Positions 21,846-33,028 of a stretch of 64,000 bases of DNA are shown here, one piece after another. A program made the position numbers and the translations under genes. Origin of the DNA: Oscillospiraceae bacterium (GTDB lineage: Bacteria > Bacillota > Clostridia > Oscillospirales > CAG-272); NCBI GenBank assembly GCA_015063695.1, contig SVTQ01000004.1:3784-67783 (forward strand), read 5' to 3'. Position 1 is the stretch's first letter, and each line of letters opens with the position of its first letter. The notes below the pieces were generated by a model. The model was not told where the DNA came from. It did not search any database and was given only the letters and a program-made list of their open reading frames with translations.

Positions 21846-22844
21846 ATGGCTAAATTTGAAGGTTACGAAAGACGCGAGGCGAAAATTCTTGCCGCTCTCG
21901 CTGAATACGGCATTTCCTCTATCGACGAATGTAAGGAAATCTGTGACGCTAAGGGTATCGACCCCTACAAGATCGTTGAAGAAACACAGCCTATCGCATT
22001 TGAAAACGCAAAGTGGGCTTACACAGTAGGTGCTGCTATCGCAATCAAGAAGGGCTGCACAAAGGCTGCTGACGCTGCTGCCGCTATCGGTATCGGCCTC
22101 CAGGCATTCTGCATCCCCGGTTCCGTTGCTGAAAACCGTAAGGTTGGTCTCGGCCACGGCAACCTCGGCTCCATGCTCCTCTCCGAAGAAACAGAATGCT
22201 TCTGCTTCCTCGCAGGTCACGAATCCTTCGCAGCTGCTGAAGGCGCTATCAAGATCGCCCTCAACGCTAACAAGGTAAGAACACAGCCCCTCCGCGTTAT
22301 CCTTAACGGTCTCGGCAAGGACGCTGCTATGATCATCTCCCGTATCAACGGCTTTACATACGTTCAGACTCAGTTCGATCCCGCAACTGAAGAAGTTACA
22401 GTTGTAAGCGAAAAGGCATACTCCAAGGGTCCCCGTGCAGATGTTAAGTGCTACGGCTCCGACAGCGTTCCCGAAGGCGTTGCTATCATGAGACTTGAAA
22501 ACGTTGGCGTTTCCATTACAGGTAACTCCACTAACCCCACAAGATTCCAGCACCCCGTTGCAGGTACATATAAGAAGTGGGCAAACGAAAACGGCGTTAA
22601 GTACTTCTCCGTTGCTTCCGGCGGCGGTACAGGCCGTACACTCCATCCCGATAACATGGCAGCAGGCCCTGCTTCCTACGGTATGACAGATACTCTCGGC
22701 CGTATGCACGGTGACGCTCAGTTTGCAGGTTCCTCTTCCGTTCCCGCACACGTTGAAATGATGGGTCTCATCGGCGCAGGTAACAACCCCATGGTTGGTA
22801 TGACTGTTGCTGTTGCAGTTGCTATCGAAGAAGCAAGCAAGTAA
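21846..22844 (+). CDS. GGGtGRT-family protein (function unknown)
   Basis: Contains the eponymous SGGGTGRT motif. I prefer the ATG at 21846 (MAKFEGY), with GAAGGAGGA 8 nt upstream, over the TTG at 21828 given in the track. Confidence 0.8.
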   Translation: MAKFEGYERREAKILAALAEYGISSIDECKEICDAKGIDPYKIVEETQPIAFENAKWAYTVGAAIAIKKGCTKAADAAAAIGIGLQAFCIPGSVAENRKVGLGHGNLGSMLLSEETECFCFLAGHESFAAAEGAIKIALNANKVRTQPLRVILNGLGKDAAMIISRINGFTYVQTQFDPATEEVTVVSEKAYSKGPRADVKCYGSDSVPEGVAIMRLENVGVSITGNSTNPTRFQHPVAGTYKKWANENGVKYFSVASGGGTGRTLHPDNMAAGPASYGMTDTLGRMHGDAQFAGSSSVPAHVEMMGLIGAGNNPMVGMTVAVAVAIEEASK

Positions 22845-22854
22845 TAAGAAATAC

Positions 22855-22924
22855 GGTCGCTTTTTGAAAAAAGCTCCGCAAAAACTTTAAAACGAACCCC
22901 CGAGGGCATGCCCTCGGGGGTTAA
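22855..22924 (+). repeat. ~70-bp terminator-like repeat, left copy (flanks the AT-rich island)
   Basis: GGTCGCTTTTTGAAAAAAGCTCCGCAAAAACTTT (34 nt identical to 27531..27564), then hairpin AACCCCCGAGGGcatgCCCTCGGGGGTT. Confidence 0.8.
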
Positions 22925-23204
22925 ATACTTTATTGACTTATAAACACACAGAACTGTCCCCTGTGTTTTTATAAAAATCAGTTAGACCCATCATTTTGAG
23001 GTTTTCCTCTATGATGGGTTTAATGTCTATATACATAATATGAAGCCGCAGTAAACGCGGCAAGTGTTATTCTAAACGCCCAGATCGAAAAAATAGAAAA
23101 AATTCTATCAACGGAGAGGGCGGGTAAAATCCGCCCTTGATTTTGTTTGTTCATCTGCTATAATAGAATTATAGAAACTTGTATCTAGATGGAGGAATTT
23201 GAGT

Positions 23205-23849
23205 GTGAAATATCATTACTATTCAACACCCGATGAGATGAAGCACCTTGAAGCATGGGGATTCAATTGGCTTGAATTTGTAACTTCTATCCCTGCACCT
23301 ATGTTTCTTGTTACATCATATAAATCAAACGGAAAAGCAAATGCTTGTATGCAATCATTTGCAAGTTTTACAACAGGAGATAGAGGAGCGCGTTTTTTTG
23401 CAATTCTTTCGAGTGTGAACAAAAGCGGACATTTGTATAAAACAATAATTGAAAATGGATGTGCAGTAATAAACTTCATGTCGGCAGATTTCTACGACAA
23501 TTCTATGGAAACCATAAAGAATAATCAGTTTGAAGTTGATGAGATATTAGAATCAAAATTAACAAGTGTACCCGCAGATAAAGTAAATGCACCTATGGTA
23601 GAGGAATGTTTTATGAATTTGGAGTGTAGGTTTTCTTGGGAAAAAGAAATCGCTCCAAATGATGACCATGTTATTATCTGCTTTGAAGTTGTGAATGTTC
23701 ATATCGATAAAAACCATCTTGATAATCGCGTTGAAGAGAACGGAATACTTTACAACATTCATTATCCTATAAACCCAGAAAAGTATAGCGGTAAAGCACA
23801 TGATTATGTAGGTATTGTAAAACCGTTAATTGATGCAGGTGAATATTGA
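23205..23849 (+). CDS. flavin reductase-like (FMN-binding split-barrel) domain protein
   Basis: About 214 aa. The pattern PAPMFLVTSYKSNGKANACMQSF...GCAVINF is typical of flavin_reduct domains. The start is ambiguous: TTG 23199, or GTG 23205, which is better spaced from the GGAGGA RBS. Confidence 0.65.
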   Translation: MKYHYYSTPDEMKHLEAWGFNWLEFVTSIPAPMFLVTSYKSNGKANACMQSFASFTTGDRGARFFAILSSVNKSGHLYKTIIENGCAVINFMSADFYDNSMETIKNNQFEVDEILESKLTSVPADKVNAPMVEECFMNLECRFSWEKEIAPNDDHVIICFEVVNVHIDKNHLDNRVEENGILYNIHYPINPEKYSGKAHDYVGIVKPLIDAGEY

Positions 23850-23913
23850 CCTACTATGGCAGACCGAAGGTAGTTTCAATTTGTAAAAAAATCAAGCCAC
23901 GGAGGGCTAAAAA

Positions 23914-24327
23914 ATGTTAGGATATAATGCTATAGTTGTATTCAATAAAGAAACAGATAAAATGTTGATGTGCAAAAGAAGACATAATCCGTATAAGGGA
24001 TTGTCAAATTTTGTTGGCGGAAAAATAGAAGAAAATGAGAATGGTTTAGATGCGGCATACAGAGAGCTTGAAGAAGAAACCACAATAACAAAAAACGATA
24101 TTATTCTTTCTCATTTAATGGACTTTACATATCACCTTGGAAATTGTTATCTTGAAGTTTATGTTGAAAATTTGAATAAATTAATTGATGTTAGCGGAGA
24201 TGAAAATGATCTGTATTGGTCAACATTAGACCATAATTTTTTTGATGCAACACAATATGCGGGAGAAGGAAATATCGGGCATATTATGATGCATGTTGAA
24301 ATGTTCAAGGAAAAATTATTAAAATAA
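23914..24327 (+). CDS. NUDIX hydrolase
   Basis: 137 aa. Nudix box GGKIEENENGLDAAYRELEEETTI. Confidence 0.85.
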   Translation: MLGYNAIVVFNKETDKMLMCKRRHNPYKGLSNFVGGKIEENENGLDAAYRELEEETTITKNDIILSHLMDFTYHLGNCYLEVYVENLNKLIDVSGDENDLYWSTLDHNFFDATQYAGEGNIGHIMMHVEMFKEKLLK

Positions 24328-24359
24328 AAGATGAACTTGAATTTGCAGGGGGAATAAAT

Positions 24360-24881
24360 ATGGGTAATGCTATATTAGTCTGCGGTTTGAACGGAGCAGG
24401 AAAAAGCACACTGGCAAAAGCACTTGCCGAAAGATTAAATCTCCGCTTTATTGATATTGAAGATATATACTTTGAAAGCCAAGACAATCCTGATTATCCG
24501 TATGAAAAATCCCGTCCCTACGAAGAGGTTGTATCATTGCTTGCAAACATTGTAAACGGTGAAAATGACTTCGTTTTGGCATCGGTAACAGGTGATTTCG
24601 GAGATGAATTTATTTCTCATTTGAAGTGTGTAATTTCCGTTGAAGTTTCAAGGGAGATACGATTAAAGCGAGTACACGATAGGTCATACACACTTTTCGG
24701 TGAAAAGAGTTATAAAGGCGGAGATTTTTACGAGCAAATCAAGTCGTTCCATAAATTTTGTGCATCAAGAGATGAAAACTTGGTTAACGATTGGCTAACC
24801 ACTATATGCTGCCCCATTATTAGAGTAGATGGAACGCTACCGATATGTGACAATGTAAATCTAATTGCCGAAGAATTGTAA
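24360..24881 (+). CDS. small P-loop NTPase / kinase-like protein
   Basis: 173 aa. Walker A GLNGAGKST at the N-terminus; size and layout of nucleoside/shikimate-kinase-like AAA proteins. Confidence 0.6.
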   Translation: MGNAILVCGLNGAGKSTLAKALAERLNLRFIDIEDIYFESQDNPDYPYEKSRPYEEVVSLLANIVNGENDFVLASVTGDFGDEFISHLKCVISVEVSREIRLKRVHDRSYTLFGEKSYKGGDFYEQIKSFHKFCASRDENLVNDWLTTICCPIIRVDGTLPICDNVNLIAEEL

Positions 24882-25017
24882 AACAAATTCCCAATTTATC
24901 GAATTGATATGCCGGAGCGGGACGTGACAATCATGGGACAGTCCCCTGATTGAAGCAGTTTATATATCACTCAAAAATTGTTTTTTATGTATATCCATAT
25001 AAATTAAGGAGTTCATT

Positions 25018-25614
25018 TTGAAAACAAATATAACGTTTCTAAGAGACTGGCTCATAACACTTTTAATAACTACCTTACTGTGGGATTTTGTCGGCGGTAT
25101 TTTTCTACTCATAGCACGATTTATATTCCCGAAACAAGCAGACCATTTTTTGTTTTTTGGCATAATTGGGACTATTGTCTTTTGCTGTGTATTGGCAATA
25201 AGATCGTATAAGTCAGGTTTAGATATTAACGGAAAACGTATTCCTGTGTCGTTGGCCATGCCGATAGCGAGCATGATCATTGCGCTTGGCGTTTATATAG
25301 TTGCTTATATAATATCGGGGTGTAATTATATTGCAGGGCCTGTTGCACATTCATATGTTACCGTGTTTTGGGGCAATGGCGTAGACCAAGCCTTTATTCA
25401 CGATATTACTATGTCTCAACATCTTTCCGTTTTTGTTCCGCTTGGATCATTGTATGTAGCCGTTTCTTTGGGTGCGTACATTTTAGCGAAGTATAAACAG
25501 GATCATCATAACAGTGTCGTTCGCAAATTAAGGGAAGAGGATATGCAAAAGAAATCCGACGATCCCTTTGAAGAAGCGTTAAAAAACGGATTAGGTAACA
25601 GAAAACATAGGTAG
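25018..25614 (+). CDS. hypothetical integral membrane protein
   Basis: 198 aa. About 4 predicted TM helices and a charged C-terminal tail. TTG start with AAGGAG 7 nt upstream. Confidence 0.5.
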   Translation: MKTNITFLRDWLITLLITTLLWDFVGGIFLLIARFIFPKQADHFLFFGIIGTIVFCCVLAIRSYKSGLDINGKRIPVSLAMPIASMIIALGVYIVAYIISGCNYIAGPVAHSYVTVFWGNGVDQAFIHDITMSQHLSVFVPLGSLYVAVSLGAYILAKYKQDHHNSVVRKLREEDMQKKSDDPFEEALKNGLGNRKHR

Positions 25615-25701
25615 TTATACTTGTGATTTAATGAAATAAAACATCTCCACTTGAGTTTAAACTTTTGATATAACCCTTATTATTCTTACATAGAGGTAAA
25701 A

Positions 25702-26574
25702 ATGAACAGGAAATATAAAAAAAGTAAAATTGAAATAAACAAATATACATGTTCCCGACTACTCTCTGACCATAACAATAAAGCGCTGATTTCAACATTC
25801 TCATGTTCCAAAAACCCGTCTCTTGCGGCACACTTAAAACGAAAAGCGTGGTTTGAAGAACAAAACAATAAACGAGCACATTTTCTCGTCAAAGAAGATA
25901 ATAAAATCGTCTTATATTTTTCATTACAATGCGGTATATTGGTACAAGCACATAAAAAAATACTTAGCGGTATAAATCATCGAGAAACAGATACCGGAAC
26001 AGAATATTTTATTGATGACGATATAATTGACGTTACGAAAACTATTCCCGCAATTGAACTTTCACACTTTTGTGTAAACGATTCATACCGAAACAAAAAA
26101 AGTGAATGGGTTGTTTACAATGGTCCCTTCACATACAAAGTCGGAGAGTATTGCTTTTATCAATATGTCGCTCCTATTGTTATCGATATTGCCGAAAAGG
26201 TCGGAGTAGAAATTCTTTATCTTTTTTGTGCAGACGAAGGAAGCGACAAATTGCTTGAATATTATTCTTCCCTAAACTTTAAAATAATGGATGATATGGC
26301 ATGTGTAAGATCTGACTACGAAAGCAATCTCTCGTGTTTAACTCAAAAAATCTGTGATTTAAAAAAATCCACCCAAGAGTTCATGAATGAGAAAAAAGCA
26401 AACGATATTTTAACATACTTGAAAACACACAAAAATATAAGCATACAAAAAATCAAAAAAATAACTGAACTTTCTAATACATATGTTCTTTTAAATAAAC
26501 TCATTAAAGAAAATCTAATAGAAGAAGATTCAGAACGAAAACATACATACGTATTAAAACAAAAATCTTTGTAA
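25702..26574 (+). CDS. hypothetical protein, GNAT-like core plus C-terminal winged-helix-like tail
   Basis: 290 aa. IELSHFCVNDSYRNKK and KLLEYYSSLNFKIM resemble GNAT beta4 and alpha4. The C-terminal ~70 aa (ILTYLKTHKNISIQKIKKITELSNTYVLLNKLIKENLIE) look wHTH-like. Confidence 0.4.
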   Translation: MNRKYKKSKIEINKYTCSRLLSDHNNKALISTFSCSKNPSLAAHLKRKAWFEEQNNKRAHFLVKEDNKIVLYFSLQCGILVQAHKKILSGINHRETDTGTEYFIDDDIIDVTKTIPAIELSHFCVNDSYRNKKSEWVVYNGPFTYKVGEYCFYQYVAPIVIDIAEKVGVEILYLFCADEGSDKLLEYYSSLNFKIMDDMACVRSDYESNLSCLTQKICDLKKSTQEFMNEKKANDILTYLKTHKNISIQKIKKITELSNTYVLLNKLIKENLIEEDSERKHTYVLKQKSL

Positions 26575-26614
26575 ATGTACGAAAAATTAGTGGTTTACCG
26601 ATAGAGGGCACATT

Positions 26615-27529
26615 ATGGAAAACACGGTAAGAAGTATTGCCGAAAAACATTTCGGACAGGATATTGAATCTATAGAACCTTTGGGCGGCGGATTTTACGG
26701 GAGAGTTTTTCTTGTTAAAATGAAAAAAGCTCCGTTTTCGGCGGTGGTCAAGCTTTATCTGTTTGACGGATTTGCAGTAAATGAAGCTTTGCAACTTAAA
26801 ACTCTCTCTCGACACTCAAAACTGAAAATGCCCGAAGTTTACGGTGTTTACAAGGCAGGGGAAACAGGGCTTCCCCACGATGCTTTGATCATGGAATTTC
26901 TTGACGGAGTAAATGCAGGGTGGCTTGACGTTTCCGCTCTTTCTTCGGATGCGAAAAACACAATATGCGAAAATATTGTTGATAACCTAATCTCTATTCA
27001 CAGCAAGGCGAACTTTGAAGGCTTCGGAGAGCTCTCCCAAAAAGAATTCTTTCCCACGTGGCAGGAATTTTACCGCCCCAAAGCAAAACGAATTGTTGAA
27101 AAAGCGCGATATCTGAAAAGTATAGGTCAAATCTCCGATTACGTTATGGACGTATTTGAAAGCTCCTTTGAAAACTTTGATAAGATATTTTGCCTTCCAA
27201 TTACCGAGGCTCGTCTTATTCACGGAGATTACAACACGTGGAATATTATGCTTAACGACGAAAAAAGCCGAGCAGAATACGTGATCGATCCTTTCGGCTG
27301 TTGCTTCGGTGACAGCGAATACGACCTTTATCAACTTGATAACGCCAACGGAAAAGATTACGGACTTTTAAAAAGATACGCCGAAAAAGTAACTTTAAGT
27401 GAAAACTTTATTCAGAAAAGATATTTTTATGAGCTTTACTCGGAGATAAGCCACTACCACGATGCCCGTGTCCCCGTTGACTTTGCCGCCGCTGAGCGCA
27501 TGGCAAATAATCTTTCAGAATTTTTATAA
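26615..27529 (+). CDS. aminoglycoside-phosphotransferase / fructosamine-kinase-fold kinase
   Basis: 304 aa. Catalytic loop HGDYNTWNIM and downstream IDPFGCCFGD, as in the APH/choline-kinase fold. Confidence 0.75.
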   Translation: MENTVRSIAEKHFGQDIESIEPLGGGFYGRVFLVKMKKAPFSAVVKLYLFDGFAVNEALQLKTLSRHSKLKMPEVYGVYKAGETGLPHDALIMEFLDGVNAGWLDVSALSSDAKNTICENIVDNLISIHSKANFEGFGELSQKEFFPTWQEFYRPKAKRIVEKARYLKSIGQISDYVMDVFESSFENFDKIFCLPITEARLIHGDYNTWNIMLNDEKSRAEYVIDPFGCCFGDSEYDLYQLDNANGKDYGLLKRYAEKVTLSENFIQKRYFYELYSEISHYHDARVPVDFAAAERMANNLSEFL

Positions 27530-27530
27530 A

Positions 27531-27604
27531 GGTCGCTTTTTGAAAAAAGCTCCGCAAAAACTTTTAAAGAGAACCCCCGAATGCTCACACATTCGGGGGT
27601 TAAG
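27531..27604 (+). repeat. ~70-bp terminator-like repeat, right copy
   Basis: Same 34-nt core as 22855..22888, then hairpin AACCCCCGAATGctcacacATTCGGGGGTT. The outer stem is conserved; the inner stem differs but still pairs. Confidence 0.8.
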
Positions 27605-27650
27605 TGTTTGTATTGGAGTTTTAGAATAAACAGAACCGGCACGGGGGTTT

Positions 27651-29888
27651 TCATTTGATTGTTAGTTTCAAAGCTTCATCCGGTTTTACACTATAGGCGG
27701 TGATTATTGCGGTGCTGTTTTCAAAAGTAAATTTTGTTTCGTGAGTGGGACAAGAAACAGTCTTGACGGGGGAAGCATTTCTGATTTCGAAAGTTATGTT
27801 ACGGGAGGAAACCTCGCCGTCGAAGCCGTTGCCTTCTTTTTTGAGGGTTATTTCAATAAAGTTTTCCTTTTCCTCGTAGAAGATCCTTGTAAGTCTGTGT
27901 CCAACCTTTTCGCTTATTCCGTCATCTTCATAAAGAACACTTTCTCCATCAGCCCCGGCATAGATAACAACGGTGGGCTCTGTCAGCTTTTCACTTGTCA
28001 TTCTGCTTGTATAGGGTTGAGTTACTAAAGGAAATCCTGCTTTTGCAAAGAGGGGGAAGGTTTCAATGCCGTGTTCTACGGTGTATTCTCTACCGCCCTC
28101 GAAGCTTTCGCCGCTGAAAATATCGTACCATACCCCTTCGGGGAGCCACAAGGCTTTCTTTGCAACGTAGTTTTCATCCCCTGCAGAGCAAATGGGGGAA
28201 ACGAGAAGACCGTCGCCCAACAAATAGGTTGAAGGGTAATTATAGGAGTTTTCGTTTTGGGGTTCTTCGATATACAAAGGCTTCAGAAGGGGTAGCCCTT
28301 TTTCACAGCACTCGTAAGCCGAAGAATAAATATATGGGAAAAGTTTTGAACGAAGAGCGTATGATTTTTTCATGGACGAAGCAAAAGGCTCTGCCCACGT
28401 CCAAGGGCGTCTGTCCAGCCCTTCAACTCCGCACATATGAACACGGAGCGCGGGGCTCATTGCGCCGAACTGCACCCAACGGGCATAGACTTCACCCTGC
28501 CCTCCGGGCACGTCGTCCTGAAAACCGCCGATGTCGTGACTCCAGAAAAAGCATCCTGCGTTTCCTGCAGTAACTGTCATTTGCACCTGGAAATCAAGGG
28601 TCTCAAAAGAAGTAACCGTATCGCCCGAGAACCAGGCGGGATGTTTGTGGTCCCCGAAGCCGCCCCATCTGGAGAAGGACATACCGCGCCTTTTTGCTGT
28701 ACCTTTTTCGTCCTTTAGTTTTGCATTTTCATAGTATAGGTGGTTCAGCCATCTCAAATGGGAAAGACCCTTTATGCCGTTTACGTTGGGGTAGAGGTAG
28801 TCCTGTTGCCAGTCAAGCCAGCGAAATGCGATATCTTTTTCTTCCATTTCTCTGTTTGTAGCATCAAAAAACGCCTTCATATAACGGAAGTCTCCCGCAT
28901 TGAAACGGTAGTTAATATTTTTCTTTTTGGGATTTTCTTTTTCTCTTTCGGATATTCTCTCCGTAACGTCGGGAACAGTTTCTTTGTACCCTGCGGCGGA
29001 AAGCTTTTCTGCAAAAACGGCGAAGCACTCGTCTGCATCACGCACCCCGTCGCAGGGGTGATCGTTGAGAACTACGGAAACTCCCTTTTCCGAAAGGGAA
29101 TTAATAAGTCCGTCCGGATCGGGAATCAGTCTTCTGTTCCATGTGTAGCCTGTCCAGCCTAAGTTCTGCCCTGCGTGGCCGTAGCCGTAGAGATAGTAAG
29201 GCTCGCCGTGGGCGTGCCCCCAGTCCTGATAGTGCCAGTCCATATCAAAAACAAGAATGTCAAGGGGAAAACCGTTCTCTTCGTATTCATCGGCAATCTT
29301 CAAAAATTCTTCTGCCGTGTAGGGCCACCAACGGGAATACCATGACCCGAAAAAGTTCTTTCTCGGAAGGGGCGCTTTTCCCGAAACTGCGAAAAAGTCG
29401 GAAAAAGCCGCTTTATAATCGGCGCCGTAGGCAAAAAGATAAAAATCGTGAAGGTGTTTTTCACTTCTGTTTTTTGCCCAGCCGTCCCAAAGGACGGGAC
29501 TGCAGGAATCGTCTATTACCTGCCAACCGTCACGGGAAAGAAGTCCGTCGGGAACTTCTCTGAAACCCGAAACTCCGTCAAGAGTATGAAGGGTTCCTTT
29601 TAAGTTTTCTTTGTTTTTGTCGCCATAGTGCCAACGGCAAGACGTTCCGCCTGCGTGAATATCAGCATAAAGAGTATCGCGAGAAAACTCTCCGCCGTGA
29701 TAGTAAAGAGTAAGCTTTTCCGTCTTAACGGTCAGAATTTCACTGTCCGTTACCTCTGCATCACATTCAACACCGCGAAGGGCAAAGAGAGTGGGTGCAT
29801 CCTCAAAGACACCGTCTTTGGCATATTCAATTCTGACAGCCCCCTCGGTTATAACCGTAAATCGGGCATTACCTTTTACAATTTTCAT
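27651..29888 (-). CDS. glycoside hydrolase family 31 (alpha-glucosidase/alpha-xylosidase-like)
   Basis: 745 aa. N-terminal RFTVITEGAVRIEY beta-sandwich, ILVFDMDWH and FFWSHDIGGF catalytic-region motifs, and a C-terminal beta-sandwich. Confidence 0.8.
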   Translation of the reverse strand: MKIVKGNARFTVITEGAVRIEYAKDGVFEDAPTLFALRGVECDAEVTDSEILTVKTEKLTLYYHGGEFSRDTLYADIHAGGTSCRWHYGDKNKENLKGTLHTLDGVSGFREVPDGLLSRDGWQVIDDSCSPVLWDGWAKNRSEKHLHDFYLFAYGADYKAAFSDFFAVSGKAPLPRKNFFGSWYSRWWPYTAEEFLKIADEYEENGFPLDILVFDMDWHYQDWGHAHGEPYYLYGYGHAGQNLGWTGYTWNRRLIPDPDGLINSLSEKGVSVVLNDHPCDGVRDADECFAVFAEKLSAAGYKETVPDVTERISEREKENPKKKNINYRFNAGDFRYMKAFFDATNREMEEKDIAFRWLDWQQDYLYPNVNGIKGLSHLRWLNHLYYENAKLKDEKGTAKRRGMSFSRWGGFGDHKHPAWFSGDTVTSFETLDFQVQMTVTAGNAGCFFWSHDIGGFQDDVPGGQGEVYARWVQFGAMSPALRVHMCGVEGLDRRPWTWAEPFASSMKKSYALRSKLFPYIYSSAYECCEKGLPLLKPLYIEEPQNENSYNYPSTYLLGDGLLVSPICSAGDENYVAKKALWLPEGVWYDIFSGESFEGGREYTVEHGIETFPLFAKAGFPLVTQPYTSRMTSEKLTEPTVVIYAGADGESVLYEDDGISEKVGHRLTRIFYEEKENFIEITLKKEGNGFDGEVSSRNITFEIRNASPVKTVSCPTHETKFTFENSTAIITAYSVKPDEALKLTIK

Positions 29889-29974
29889 ATTTCCCTCTAA
29901 AAATGTTTTCTGTTTTAATGGTATACTATTTTTCTCTGTTAGTCAACGAATTTTTATAACATAACCCAAACAAA

Positions 29975-30092
29975 CGGGACGTCGAAGCGCGTCCCCTACG
30001 AAATAAGATGAAAACTCCTGCTTGTGATATAAATAAAAAATAGGCTCTATGCAGTACAACCACGTTTTGGTGTACCAACATAGAGCCGTTTT
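29975..30092 (+). repeat. 118-bp direct repeat, copy A (flanks the Fic cassette)
   Basis: CGGGACGTCGAAGCGCGTCCCCTACGAAATAAGATGAAAACT...AGGCTCTATGCAGTACAACCACGTTTTGGTGTACCAACATAGAGCC; about 90 percent identical by eye to 31355..31472. Confidence 0.85.
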
Positions 30093-30099
30093 TCGGTTT

Positions 30100-31206
30100 T
30101 TACGAGTTTGAAATTTTGGAAACTATCTCTTTTTTATTCTTTTTTGTGAATTCACTTAATGAATATGAACGAACCCTCTCTTTTACAATATTAGGAATTA
30201 AAAATCCATTCGCTGTGAGTTTAACACAACGGTTAATAATTGTTTTGTTGGTGACACCGAATTTTTTACTCACTTCAATTGGAGTGAATTCAAACAAATG
30301 ATTATTAATAAGAAATAACAAAAGTCCTTTTTCTTTTTCGTTCAGATATGACAAACTACCGTCCAATTCATCAGCGGTTGAGTTCCTTGACAGCTCGCAG
30401 ACCTTTTTTGAGTAAAGTTCCATCATACGAAGGAAATAGTTTATCCAGATTTCAGGGTGAGGCGGATTCTCTCTGCCCGAATAATACAATGCCGGCAAGC
30501 CCATTTGAAGCGATGCATAGTATTCGTCGGAATCATATGCGAAATACTCTTCAAGAGAACCGATACCGCCAAAACCGTAACCGTAAAAATCAAGAACGTA
30601 TCCCGACATCAGTCGTGCTGTTCGACCATTGCCATCTTCAAAAGGATGAATAGTAACCAACTGATAGTGAACGACCGCAGCAATAATAAGAGGATGATCA
30701 TCTGTTGTATTTACATATTCTACGAGTTCATCAATAAGTCCGGGAAGCTCGCTGTACTCGGGCGGTATATATTCAGGGGGACCGCTTTCCGAGTCATATA
30801 CGGCAAATAATACCCCCGGAGGCATTGCGCCTCTGAGTCCGATCTTTTCTTTTGAGGCTCCTTTTTCAACCATTGCCTGAACTTCAAGCAGCAGCTTTTT
30901 GGAAAACGGTTCTTTTGCTTTGAGTTTTTCTTCAAGCAAGTTAAGGGCGAGAAAATAATTTCTCACTTCCTGTTCCGGTTTCAGAAAATGTTTATGTGCA
31001 TCGCTTTCCATTGCCTCGTTTGCTTGTTCCTCTGTTAATGGATTTCCTTCAATTTTATTGGAGGCATACGAACTTTTCTTTTTGGAATTTTTTCTGAGCC
31101 TGTTTTTAGTAAGTTGAGGAACTTCAATCGTTTTAAAAGAAAAGCGGTTTTCATCAATAGCAGATATCTTTTTTAATATATCGTTTGTTAACGTAACCTT
31201 TATCAT
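30100..31206 (-). CDS. Fic-family protein (AMPylase-type) with C-terminal wHTH
   Basis: 368 aa. Active-site HPFEDGNGRTARL, N-terminal inhibitory-helix motif SNKIEGN (S-x3-E-G), and a C-terminal HTH-like segment (KFGVTNKTIINRCVKLTANGFL). Confidence 0.9.
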   Translation of the reverse strand: MIKVTLTNDILKKISAIDENRFSFKTIEVPQLTKNRLRKNSKKKSSYASNKIEGNPLTEEQANEAMESDAHKHFLKPEQEVRNYFLALNLLEEKLKAKEPFSKKLLLEVQAMVEKGASKEKIGLRGAMPPGVLFAVYDSESGPPEYIPPEYSELPGLIDELVEYVNTTDDHPLIIAAVVHYQLVTIHPFEDGNGRTARLMSGYVLDFYGYGFGGIGSLEEYFAYDSDEYYASLQMGLPALYYSGRENPPHPEIWINYFLRMMELYSKKVCELSRNSTADELDGSLSYLNEKEKGLLLFLINNHLFEFTPIEVSKKFGVTNKTIINRCVKLTANGFLIPNIVKERVRSYSLSEFTKKNKKEIVSKISNS

Positions 31207-31354
31207 AACACCATCCCCTTGCGTTTACTAATTATATTATATCATAATGAAACGAAAAATTCCATTATTTTTACACTATTTTTACACTATTTTTCATTAA
31301 GAAACGAAACCAGATCAGAGGACATGTTCCTTGATCGACCGAAATCTCACGTAA

Positions 31355-31472
31355 TCGGGACGTCGAGGCGCCGTCCCCTACGAAATAAGATGAAAACTAC
31401 TGCTGTTATATAAATAAAAAATAGGCTCTGTGCAGTACGACCACGTTTTGGTGTGCCAACATAGAGCCGTTT
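31355..31472 (+). repeat. 118-bp direct repeat, copy B
   Basis: Same two-hairpin element as 29975..30092, in the same orientation. Confidence 0.85.
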
Positions 31473-31494: not shown

Positions 31495-31561
31495 TTCCCC
31501 TTTTCCCGTTTAAAAGTTTTAAAGGGGGTCAAAGGGGGAAACTTTTTCAAAAGTTTCCCCC
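31495..31561 (-). terminator. intrinsic terminator; member of the dual-hairpin repeat family (minus orientation)
   Basis: On the minus strand, GGGGGAAACTTTTGAAAAAGTTTCCCCC then TTTGACCCCCTTTAAAACTTTTAAAC, directly downstream of the aminotransferase stop. Confidence 0.6.
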
Positions 31562-31570
31562 TTAATACTC

Positions 31571-32857
31571 TTATTCAAATGATTTCAGGTACTTTTCGCA
31601 GGCTGCCTTTTTGATACAGAGGCAGAGTATCTCAACTGCCATCTGAAGCTCCTCGTTGTCGGGGAAGGTAGGCGCAATTCTGAGGTTTCTGTCTCTGGGG
31701 TCACGTCCGTAGGGGAAGGTTGCGCCTGCAGGAGTGAGGGACACGCCGTTTTTCATGGCCAGTCTGTAAACTCTTCTTGCAAGACCATCTTCAACGTTAA
31801 GGCTGATGAAGTAACCGCCCTTGGGCTCGTTCCATTCGGCAATACCGAGACCTTCAAGCTCACGCTTAAAGATACTTGTTACGATATCAAATTTGGGCTT
31901 GATTATCTGCGCGTGACGCTTCATGTGTGCATGAATGCCTTCCGCATTCTTGAAATACTTAACGTGACGCATCTGGTTTATCTTATCGTAACCGATGGTC
32001 TGTGTGCCGAGGATGGGCTTTATATGCTCAATGTTCTTTTCACTTGCCGCCATGATAGCAACACCGGAACCGGGGTAGGATATCTTGGAGGTTGAAGCAA
32101 AATAGAAGATCTGATCCTGTGTTCCGTACTTTTCAGCCGCCTTGAAGATGTTCATGAGCTCAACCTTTTCGTCGGTGAGTTCGTGCACACAATAAGCATT
32201 ATCCCAGAAAATTCTGAAGTCGGGAGCCGCAGGGCGGAGAGCCGCGAACTGTTCAACTACTTCATCGGAATAGGTGATGCCCTCGGGATTGGAGAACTTG
32301 GGAACACACCATATACCCTTAACCGCAGGGCTGGAGCAGGCAATTTCGTTTACCGCATCCATATTGGGACCGTCGGGAGTCATTTCAACGGGAATGAGCT
32401 CAATACCGAGCTTCTGACAGATAGCAAAATGTCTGTCATATCCGGGGCTGGGACAGATAAACTTGATTCTACCCTGACGGCCCCAAGGCTCGTAACCGCC
32501 TGCAACACCGAAGAGCATTGCGCGGACGATAGTGTCAAACATAACATTCAGAGAGGAGTTGCCGAGAACCATGATGCGCTCGGGGGGAATATCAAGAAGG
32601 TCGGAGAAGAGCTTCTTTGTTTCGGGCAGACCGTCAAGAATACCGTAGTTTCTGCAGTCGAGACCGTTTTCGGAGAAGCAGTCCTCGCGGGTAGAGATAA
32701 CGCTGAGCATATCTGTAGTCAGGTCAAGCTGAGCCTGACCGGGCTTACCTCTTGTAAGGTCAAGATGAAGATCTCGCGCTTCCCATTCTTTGAGAGCGGC
32801 ATTGACTTCGTCATAATAGTTTAAAAGCTGTTCCTTAGAAAAGTTGCGAAGTTCCAT
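31571..32857 (-). CDS. class I/II-fold PLP-dependent aminotransferase
   Basis: The PLP-lysine context ASTSKISYPGSG fits the fold. I prefer the ATG at 32857 (MELRNFSKEQ), with GAAAGGA upstream, over the track start at 32908. Confidence 0.75.
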   Translation of the reverse strand: MELRNFSKEQLLNYYDEVNAALKEWEARDLHLDLTRGKPGQAQLDLTTDMLSVISTREDCFSENGLDCRNYGILDGLPETKKLFSDLLDIPPERIMVLGNSSLNVMFDTIVRAMLFGVAGGYEPWGRQGRIKFICPSPGYDRHFAICQKLGIELIPVEMTPDGPNMDAVNEIACSSPAVKGIWCVPKFSNPEGITYSDEVVEQFAALRPAAPDFRIFWDNAYCVHELTDEKVELMNIFKAAEKYGTQDQIFYFASTSKISYPGSGVAIMAASEKNIEHIKPILGTQTIGYDKINQMRHVKYFKNAEGIHAHMKRHAQIIKPKFDIVTSIFKRELEGLGIAEWNEPKGGYFISLNVEDGLARRVYRLAMKNGVSLTPAGATFPYGRDPRDRNLRIAPTFPDNEELQMAVEILCLCIKKAACEKYLKSFE

Positions 32858-33028
32858 TTTTTCATGTCCTTTCGACAATTTTTGAAATATTTTCTCTAAA
32901 AATTGCAAAAAATATTTGCTATCAGCAGATATTATACCATATATTGCCTCAAATTACAAGTGTTATATGGAATTCTTTCAAAATTATTCCGAGATGCAAA
33001 AAAGAAAGACCTCTCCCGAGGCCTTTCT

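Follow-up and report, generated by a model that had tools for sequence, protein, structure and literature searches.

The question raised by this locus is how an AT-rich cluster of six genes came to lie between two copies of a terminator-like repeat with no recombinase among them. The locus is part of a 64,000-nt stretch of DNA, analysed as a whole and here called the window, from Oscillospiraceae bacterium GCA_015063695.1 (contig SVTQ01000004.1; assembly 1.85 Mb, 45 contigs, 91% complete). The six genes follow a GGGtGRT gene and end with an APH-like kinase gene, and one copy of the repeat (R) stands behind each of these two genes, R1 behind the former and R2 behind the latter. An earlier note on this DNA had proposed the capture of a cassette, driven by homology or by a recombinase acting in trans. 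We favour, with a probability of roughly 0.55, another reading, in which the region 3′ of the GGGtGRT gene is hypervariable in its accessory genes, and the block there was assembled stepwise as a mosaic at an integration hotspot.

The two repeats of about 120 nt would then have long been resident as two separate copies of a cross-phylum repeat, belonging to a subfamily specific to the clade and each consisting of an invariant 34-nt triplex-type hairpin core and a variable GC hairpin. In an earlier step the APH gene together with its repeat (the APH-R module) would have been placed downstream of the GGGtGRT gene, thereby creating the bracket of two repeats, and the likeliest route would be recombination at the repeat or transport as cargo of a GGGtGRT-targeting island. 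Later, AT-rich modules may have entered one by one between the repeats by routes that do not leave long duplications. The modules stacked in this way would be FlavRed-NUDIX-AAA18 with a decayed X module, the membrane protein gene TM4, and a 290-amino-acid (aa) orphan. The main features of the locus are the following.

21846..22844, + strand: GGGtGRT gene (PF14057), assigned by Pfam, true ATG start checked
22855..22888, + strand: core of R1, the invariant 34-nt module, in which T7-T11 would pair with A14-A18 and A26-A30 is the candidate third strand
22889..22975, + strand: X1, the clade-specific part of R1, with two hairpins, the GC hairpin (22895-22922) and another at about 22938-22968
23205..24881, + strand: private AT-rich module FlavRed-NUDIX-AAA18, missing at the counterpart locus of sister genomes
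23205-23849, + strand: flavin-reductase-like gene (Flavin_Reduct, Pfam)
23914-24327, + strand: NUDIX gene (Pfam)
24360-24881, + strand: AAA_18 P-loop kinase gene (Pfam)
25018..25614, + strand: TM4, a 198-aa membrane protein with four hydrophobic segments, common to sister genomes (87-93% aa identity)
25702..26574, + strand: 290-aa orphan with the lowest G+C in the cluster, between TM4 and APH and extra relative to locus L294
26615..27529, + strand: APH/fructosamine-kinase-fold gene, assigned by Pfam and by the contexts of its homologues
27531..27654, + strand: R2, with the core at 27531-27564, a GC hairpin at 27572-27601 and a tail up to the convergent GH31 stop codon
27651..29888, − strand: GH31 glycosidase gene, the conserved right-hand neighbour (91% nt identity in a sister genome)

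The two repeat copies and their neighbouring genes

The 34-nt core GGTCGCTTTTTGAAAAAAGCTCCGCAAAAACTTT is exact at 22855-22888 and at 27531-27564, a pair that was never reproduced by shuffles, and with 8 mismatches permitted the whole 1.85-Mb assembly contains only these two copies. When gaps are allowed, the similarity extends over about 124 nt (22855-22972 against 27531-27654) at 77% identity. Perfect identity between the copies is confined to the core, and the remaining repeat is 65-77% identical. Both copies contain the GC hairpin AACCCCCGA..TCGGGGGTT, the inner stems of which differ yet are still paired; the exact cores and the different but complementary stems are present just as the earlier note had described them. 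An inverted arm is weak in the window copies, that of R2 being matched by 103 of 2000 shuffles and that of R1 not being significant. R1 begins at 22855, 10 nt past the stop codon of the GGGtGRT gene (22844), and reading of the sequence revealed no target-site duplication at R1 or R2.

R1 and R2 belong to one clade-specific subfamily. Their clade-specific parts (X1 and X2) and the copy in genome G006 are mutually equidistant with 60-65% identity, and the attempt to name one of the two as derived from a donor was given up for this reason. By our own arithmetic, the chance that random placement would bring the two copies within their distance of 4.7 kb is 2 x 4676 / 1.85 Mb, or about 0.005. The sister genome GCA_054281895.1 has four R copies clustered at its GGGtGRT locus, and congeners have 0-5 copies in total. 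Because the window's genome has only two copies, 4.7 kb apart, and the sister has four at one locus, the R copies are non-randomly placed.

At least seven other genera have the core 8-12 nt past the stop codon of their GGGtGRT gene, and behind a GGGtGRT 3′ fragment in the sister GCA_054281895.1 (locus L297) stands a GC hairpin identical to that of R1. By this comparison R1 is native to the GGGtGRT gene as its 3′ flank. The gene for the APH-like kinase is rare, with 2 hits in 400 genomes of the family at 56% identity; closer homologues (83-89% aa identity) are present in sister metagenome-assembled genomes (MAGs). In all four contexts of close homologues, namely APH#1 and APH#2 of L297, L294 and the window, an R copy lies 1-60 nt 3′ of APH, and the core hairpin loop of the copy behind APH#2 is broken by an insert of about 38 nt. 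The hairpin type of R2 (GAATGC..) is that of the copy behind APH in L294, and only an X-tail-like hairpin lies behind APH in the distant locus L295. Judged by these contexts, R2 travels with the APH-like kinase gene.

Gene order in related genomes

In L294, where the GGGtGRT gene is 95% identical in nucleotides to that of the window, the order is GGGtGRT, a comb of hairpins, 23S_rRNA_IVP, genes for 270 aa and 192 aa, TM4, APH and R. L297 starts with GGGtGRT and R, followed by a bracketed insert of 6.4 kb that carries DUF2971, a methyltransferase, a 240-aa protein, APH#1 with its R, and a 636-aa protein. The insert is succeeded by a 93-nt GGGtGRT fragment, which is 98% identical to the end of the gene, then by R, a 192-aa protein, a dCMP deaminase and TM4. 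At the right end of L297, TM4 is convergent with GH31, after which come APH#2 and R. In the more distant L295, APH, RelE and XRE are convergent with GH31.

The gene orders in L294, L297 and L295 show TM4, APH and GH31 to be neighbours of long standing. FlavRed-NUDIX-AAA18 and the orphan of 290 aa count as private modules of the window's genome, and TM4 and APH are common to the sisters; no long repeats were found around the insertion of the orphan. The six genes form a mosaic of at least four modules and not one cassette. The bracket of GGGtGRT-R and APH-R is likely to be older than the private AT-rich modules because a sister species has it around different genes. Of the cassette capture that had been proposed, one part stands, namely that the site takes in foreign DNA, but the bracket seems to predate the private genes, and the content is divided into at least four modules.

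Several points weigh against a stepwise origin. The empty site that the earlier note expected in relatives was looked for, and none was found for the private modules within the same species, where all same-strain contigs carry the island. The relatives compared are 72-95% identical and are mostly fragmented MAGs; with relatives at 80-95% identity, the proposed succession of steps rests on three or four genomes. R2 and the sister's R behind APH#2 have different hairpin types, and their orthology is not established. Finally, the clustering of R at the locus could mean that R has an active part.

Two observations on related loci are added here. Directly past the GGGtGRT stop codon, L294:986-1195 contains an array of mini-hairpins with ATGAAAT / ATTTCAT linkers, and a 117-aa 23S_rRNA_IVP gene follows. 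In G006, contig C71 was considered as the right neighbour of contig C18 (G006:C18) and was rejected, as G006:C71 continues into a downstream region of its own; in C18, resemblance to the GH31 end of the window is limited to the last 28 nt.

Composition of the island and its non-coding modules

The island consists of six open reading frames (ORFs) on one strand between the two repeat copies, and Pfam detected no integrase or transposase domain among the island proteins, which bears out the earlier description. Of the gene labels given there, 'GNAT-like/wHTH' for the orphan could not be confirmed, as this protein has no sequence match in Pfam, NCBIfam or PDB. G+C is 0.28-0.40 over 23.0-26.6 kb, 0.41-0.42 over APH and 0.46-0.55 in the flanks, with a genome mean of 0.46, and the island stretch is the third-lowest 3.6-kb window genome-wide (0.12 percentile). 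The claims that the first five genes are AT-rich and that the last one is nearer to the host in composition therefore agree with the measured values, and APH does belong to the host side, since relatives keep it close to GH31. The DNA enclosed by the repeats is accessory and of foreign composition.

As single genes, the AAA_18 kinase and NUDIX genes are present with 83-90% DNA identity in many other genera and not in congeners. This cross-genus identity is higher than the 72-86% of the conserved GGGtGRT gene and therefore suggests a recent exchange of both genes between genera.

The non-coding parts of the island include four further features, and the three hairpins that had been noted at the left junction are real.

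22982..23023, + strand: hairpin AGACCCATCAT..ATGATGGGT, a diverged copy of the GGACACATCAT hairpin
Within 23045..23164, + strand: two more hairpins, at 23045-23061 and at 23116-23138, the latter with a T-rich tail
23137-23164, + strand: TTGATT-16-TATAAT with TG, a strong promoter-like site upstream of the first gene in the island
24882..24960, + strand: degenerate X-type module without core, directly past the AAA_18 stop codon

The GGACACATCAT hairpin is located 3′ of the core at integrase-free sites and 5′ of the integrase gene in islands. R copies in G006 and in the sister genome have tails that match the tail CAATCATGGGACAGTCCCCTGATTGA of the module at 24882..24960.

Integrase islands at the 3′ end of the GGGtGRT gene

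In genome G058, four GGGtGRT 3′ fragments bound AT-richer segments, the first of which opens with a tyrosine integrase. Homologues of this integrase (73-90% identity) are encoded in 13 further genomes from 12 genera, in 13/13 of them about 170 nt past a full-length GGGtGRT gene, and a conserved hairpin GGACACATCAT..ATGATGTGTCC lies right ahead of the island integrase start. Eight islands were followed: six are closed by a gene-end repeat of about 95 nt, with a constant left boundary, and the other two ran past the fetched DNA. G058's own island is closed by such a repeat too, which makes seven of seven with the far end covered. The gene-end repeat has a length of about 93-98 nt, and the equivalent position in the window is about 22749-22845. 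The islands of this family are AT-rich and 5.5-15 kb long, and some form tandem arrays that include integrase-less segments (G058:C40:1-16000 = L207/L205; L224-L233). Integrase-less segments are present at the GGGtGRT attachment site in G058, G145 and L297, and the inserts in G145 and L297 are bounded by the gene-end repeat together with R. By these comparisons the 3′ end of the GGGtGRT gene is an integration hotspot.

The window island, too, is inserted immediately 3′ of a full-length GGGtGRT gene. In the island, also about 170 nt past the stop codon, no integrase was detected by Pfam, a tblastn search of the genome with the G058 integrase gave no match, and there is no GGGtGRT 3′ fragment ahead of 27531. 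The single tyrosine recombinase of the assembly has its best matches to XerC/XerD and is Xer-like; beyond it, the assembly offers no candidate for the recombinase in trans that had been suggested.

Alternative explanations for the bracketed block

The direct repeats around foreign DNA without a recombinase could also result from one-step homology-driven integration of the Campbell or ends-in type, in which a circle or fragment with its own diverged repeat would have recombined within the core and duplicated the repeat around the 4.6-kb block. The only perfect identity between the copies is in the core, with 65-77% in the rest, and recA-type recombination reportedly requires a minimum of about 34 nt. 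Elsewhere in this genome, direct repeats of 59-304 nt of local intergenic DNA, each with a different sequence, flank at least four more AT-rich cargos. Triplex repeats have also been linked to local genome variability (Holder et al. 2015, PMC4666352). We nevertheless consider one-step capture unlikely: TM4 and APH-R are already at the locus in sisters without the other genes, so that the block is not one unit, and X1, X2 and the G006 copy are equidistant, with neither window copy donor-like. Moreover, homologues of the island genes elsewhere have no flanking core, and core pairs elsewhere do not enclose low-GC DNA. A decayed GGGtGRT-targeting island, which would since have lost its integrase and 95-nt attachment repeat, is likewise doubtful, even though the block is at the exact position of the 13 integrase islands and is AT-rich as they are. 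In those islands the integrase gene is preceded by the hairpin of 22982-23023, but this hairpin also lies behind the core at integrase-free sites and is not diagnostic. Such a decay would fit the integrase-less segments that G058, G145 and L297 have at the GGGtGRT attachment site, and also the APH-R unit, which is cargo of such a segment in L297. Against it speak the right end, which has no GGGtGRT 3′ fragment, the start of the repeat 10 nt past the stop codon, the failure of tblastn to find an integrase remnant genome-wide, and the lack of any cargo in common with the eight islands examined.

The bracket would be a coincidence if two mobile repeats had been inserted independently behind two stop codons, unrelated to the arrival of the genes. 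In high-copy genomes the repeat does occur in nearly every intergenic gap, also beside housekeeping genes, and it prefers sites right behind stop codons. However, the window copies are the only two of the genome and are 4.7 kb apart, the four copies at the same locus of the sister compare with 0-5 in whole congener genomes, both window copies fall into one clade-specific subfamily, and no target-site duplication is visible, all of which makes coincidence highly improbable in our view. Another idea, speculative and rather improbable, gives R an active role as a cis-acting site that would be read as folded single-stranded DNA by a hypothetical widespread enzyme. Copying into hairpin tips, gaps and reading frames across phyla would then make units of a gene plus R, for example APH-R, movable without a recombinase of their own and would build the locus cassette by cassette. 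Repeat-driven capture is possible, and the stepwise mosaic at an integration hotspot is the reading that we prefer.

Distribution of the 34-nt core

Among 151 genomes of the same family, 24 genomes from 21 genera contain the core at 0-3 mismatches. A cross-phylum scan was performed with one genome per species, and the figures given for it apply among the matches listed. These matches comprise gut and rumen Clostridia, the complete genome of Desulfoluna limicola, and MAGs labelled Desulfolunaceae, Desulfatibacillaceae, Omnitrophota, Aminicenantes and Rhodovastum. The core is identical in 34/34 positions in gut Clostridia, Desulfoluna, Omnitrophota, Aminicenantes and Acetobacteraceae. The cross-phylum claim is anchored by the D. 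limicola isolate genome, and the phylum labels of the MAGs are as deposited. Copy numbers per genome are 150 in a Eubacteriales MAG, 89 in D. limicola and 17-18 in the Omnitrophota and Rhodovastum MAGs. The core is hence not specific to the island and is conserved at hundreds of unrelated sites in several phyla, an outcome that the earlier note itself had named as speaking against its reading. A general pairing of core copies with low-GC cargo is not supported: the genes that lie between direct pairs in other genomes are ordinary ones, also in composition.

The core favours positions right behind stop codons and is embedded in different units. In the high-copy Eubacteriales genome (G422) it is the inner part of long inverted arms of a palindrome of about 215 nt, which fills nearly every intergenic gap and borders housekeeping genes. 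In Desulfoluna the enclosing unit measures 255-290 nt and has its own terminal inverted repeats, with the core slightly inward of its left end. In an Omnitrophota MAG (G418; L197, L198, L199) the reverse complement of the core plus GCCTCCGGCGG lies in frame inside adenylation domains of nonribosomal peptide synthetase (NRPS) genes. This insert, the reverse complement of the core with 11 further conserved bases, encodes KSFCGAFFKKRPAGG and is situated between the ELTxEKF and YRTGDL motifs, and once ahead of the A3 motif.

No recurrent protein family was found within 3 kb of 120 core copies. An autonomous parent element was rejected because there is no recurrent ORF near these 120 copies and because the inverted pairs in G422 enclose housekeeping genes. 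No Rfam family matched either repeat or its vicinity, and 15 loci from other phyla had none as well; searches of phage, plasmid and IMG/VR sequences gave near-chance matches for the core or none, and a literature search for the core sequence gave no match. Homologues of the island genes elsewhere do not travel with the core. A promoter reading of the core (TTGAAA-17-...) was dropped, as the −10 position is not conserved among copies. A coding reading was dropped as well, as the variants are compensatory in the hairpin and not synonymous, with the in-frame NRPS inserts as the exception.

At L293:10916-11050 and L294:4779-4852 the loop of the core hairpin is split after TTTTTGAAA by an extra segment of about 38 nt, and in the high-copy genome the flanks of the core copies are palindromic themselves. 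Because of the interrupted loops and palindromic flanks, small elements are suggested to nest in hairpin tips. The contig end of JAZSPB010000055.1 (L136) in the public assembly reads AAGTCGGATCGTAGCCATGTCGTTCTGTGG, which presumably reflects an MGI/BGI sequencing adapter that it resembles.

Sequence constraint and a candidate triple helix

At seven orthologous sites behind GGGtGRT genes, identity is 77% in the last 300 nt of the gene, 55% in the 10-nt spacer, 98% in the core and 51% in the next 60 nt. The core is composed of T7-11, G12-A13, A14-18, G19-C25 and A26-30, which correspond to a pyrimidine tract, a loop, a purine tract, a second loop and a mirror purine tract. Core variants change in threes, namely T11C with A14G and A30G, and T10C with A15G and A29G. 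The triplets (11,14,30), (10,15,29) and (9,16,28) are each also found as C·G·G instead of T·A·A. This covariation therefore fits the class II purine-motif triplex rule (A·A-T to G·G-C), which places the third strand (26-30) antiparallel to the purine strand (14-18). The class II layout was defined for TMECO by Holder et al. 2015 (PMC4666352).

The predicted triplet (9,16,28) was sought in metagenomes with G28 forced and the other arms left free. Two of the four true family members had T9C and A16G, and the other two were uncompensated. Six uncompensated single copies of core variants also exist. Nearest-neighbour folding of the core captures the hairpin alone, with −4.5 kcal/mol, which is no better than shuffles. 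The case for a triplex rests on three covarying triplets, which possibly stem from few lineages. On this evolutionary evidence we propose the core as a candidate A/T-rich intrastrand triplex that would be kept by selection.

Comparison with known systems

The closest resemblance of the core is to the TMECO, PIT and BoxC triplex repeats (PMC4666352). In both cases the layout follows the class II purine motif, and the copies are dispersed, mostly intergenic, highly conserved and sometimes arranged as inverted pairs, with variable neighbourhoods and no occurrence on phages or plasmids. In contrast to these repeats with their G/C-rich 9-nt arms, the core is A/T-rich and has five triplets. It is letter-identical across phyla, whereas theirs are limited to some Proteobacteria, and it is embedded in longer palindromic units similar to miniature inverted-repeat transposable elements (MITEs), also in frame inside NRPS genes.

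With MITEs, Correia elements, Rickettsia palindromic elements (RPEs) and repetitive extragenic palindromic (REP/REPIN) sequences, the core units share a short, non-coding and palindromic nature, tens to 150 copies and a location at gene ends. They also break assemblies and, like RPEs, occasionally form in-frame inserts. Unlike MITEs, they have no transposase or RAYT near the copies and no clear target duplication, one module of 34 nt is invariant while the remainder has 50-80% identity, and the flanks of the copies are palindromic. In comparison to REP/REPIN sequences, the core starts with GGTCGC and has no GTAG tag, and there is no recurrent neighbour gene near its copies (no genome-wide search for RAYT was made).

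The GGGtGRT locus resembles 3′-end tyrosine-recombinase islands (tRNA/tmRNA-type, tycheposon-like) in its adjoining integrase, the gene-end repeat of about 95 nt, the tandem arrays and the integrase-less segments. The block in the window differs in that it has neither an integrase nor a gene-end repeat, and its own repeat is outside the gene. APH-R is similar to integron attC cassettes and clusters of attC sites lacking an integron integrase (CALIN), in that a structured 3′ element is kept and several copies in the same orientation are found in one variable locus. However, the assembly, at 91% completeness, contains no integron integrase, and most modules are without the element. The boundary between shared and private sequence is at the end of the X tail, past GGGGGTTAA, and not between G and TT of an R′ box as in attC sites.

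A 34-nt non-coding sequence that stays letter-perfect from gut Clostridia to Desulfobacterota and Omnitrophota while its surroundings drift offers a defined oligonucleotide for biophysical tests, together with three natural compensatory variants. In many genera of rumen and gut Clostridia, integrase islands, integrase-less segments and small cassettes share a landing pad at the 3′ end of the uncharacterised GGGtGRT gene, which is useful for annotating accessory and defence genes in uncultured genomes. The locus further illustrates that direct repeats around low-GC DNA need not mark an insertion event.

Other repeat-flanked cargo in this genome

The second case of the earlier note, a Fic gene within direct repeats, was confirmed. 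The gene (30100-31206, − strand) matches the SoFic defence model of PADLOC with E = 3e-43 and is absent from 40 relatives, and its flanks form a direct repeat of 121 nt with 93% identity (29972-30091 / 31353-31472) that contains a terminator hairpin. Three further AT-rich cargos lie between direct repeats without a recombinase: a gene for a 2046-aa RHS/YD toxin with small downstream genes (C11:103-8789, 163-nt repeats, 96%), an AMP-ligase-like gene (C44:18215-21423, 304-nt repeats, 96%), and genes for a 168-aa protein and an XRE regulator (C1:34995-36045, 59-nt repeats, 88%). Because at least four AT-rich cargos other than the island are enclosed by direct repeats of 59-304 nt, some duplicative or homology-based route of insertion operates in this genome.

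A different dispersed palindromic repeat of about 55-75 nt is located at about 31503-31578 of the window, just ahead of the stop codon of gene 31571-32908. It has at least seven further copies in the genome (C13, C15, C36, C38, C39, C44) and many in the congeners G002, G004 and G006.

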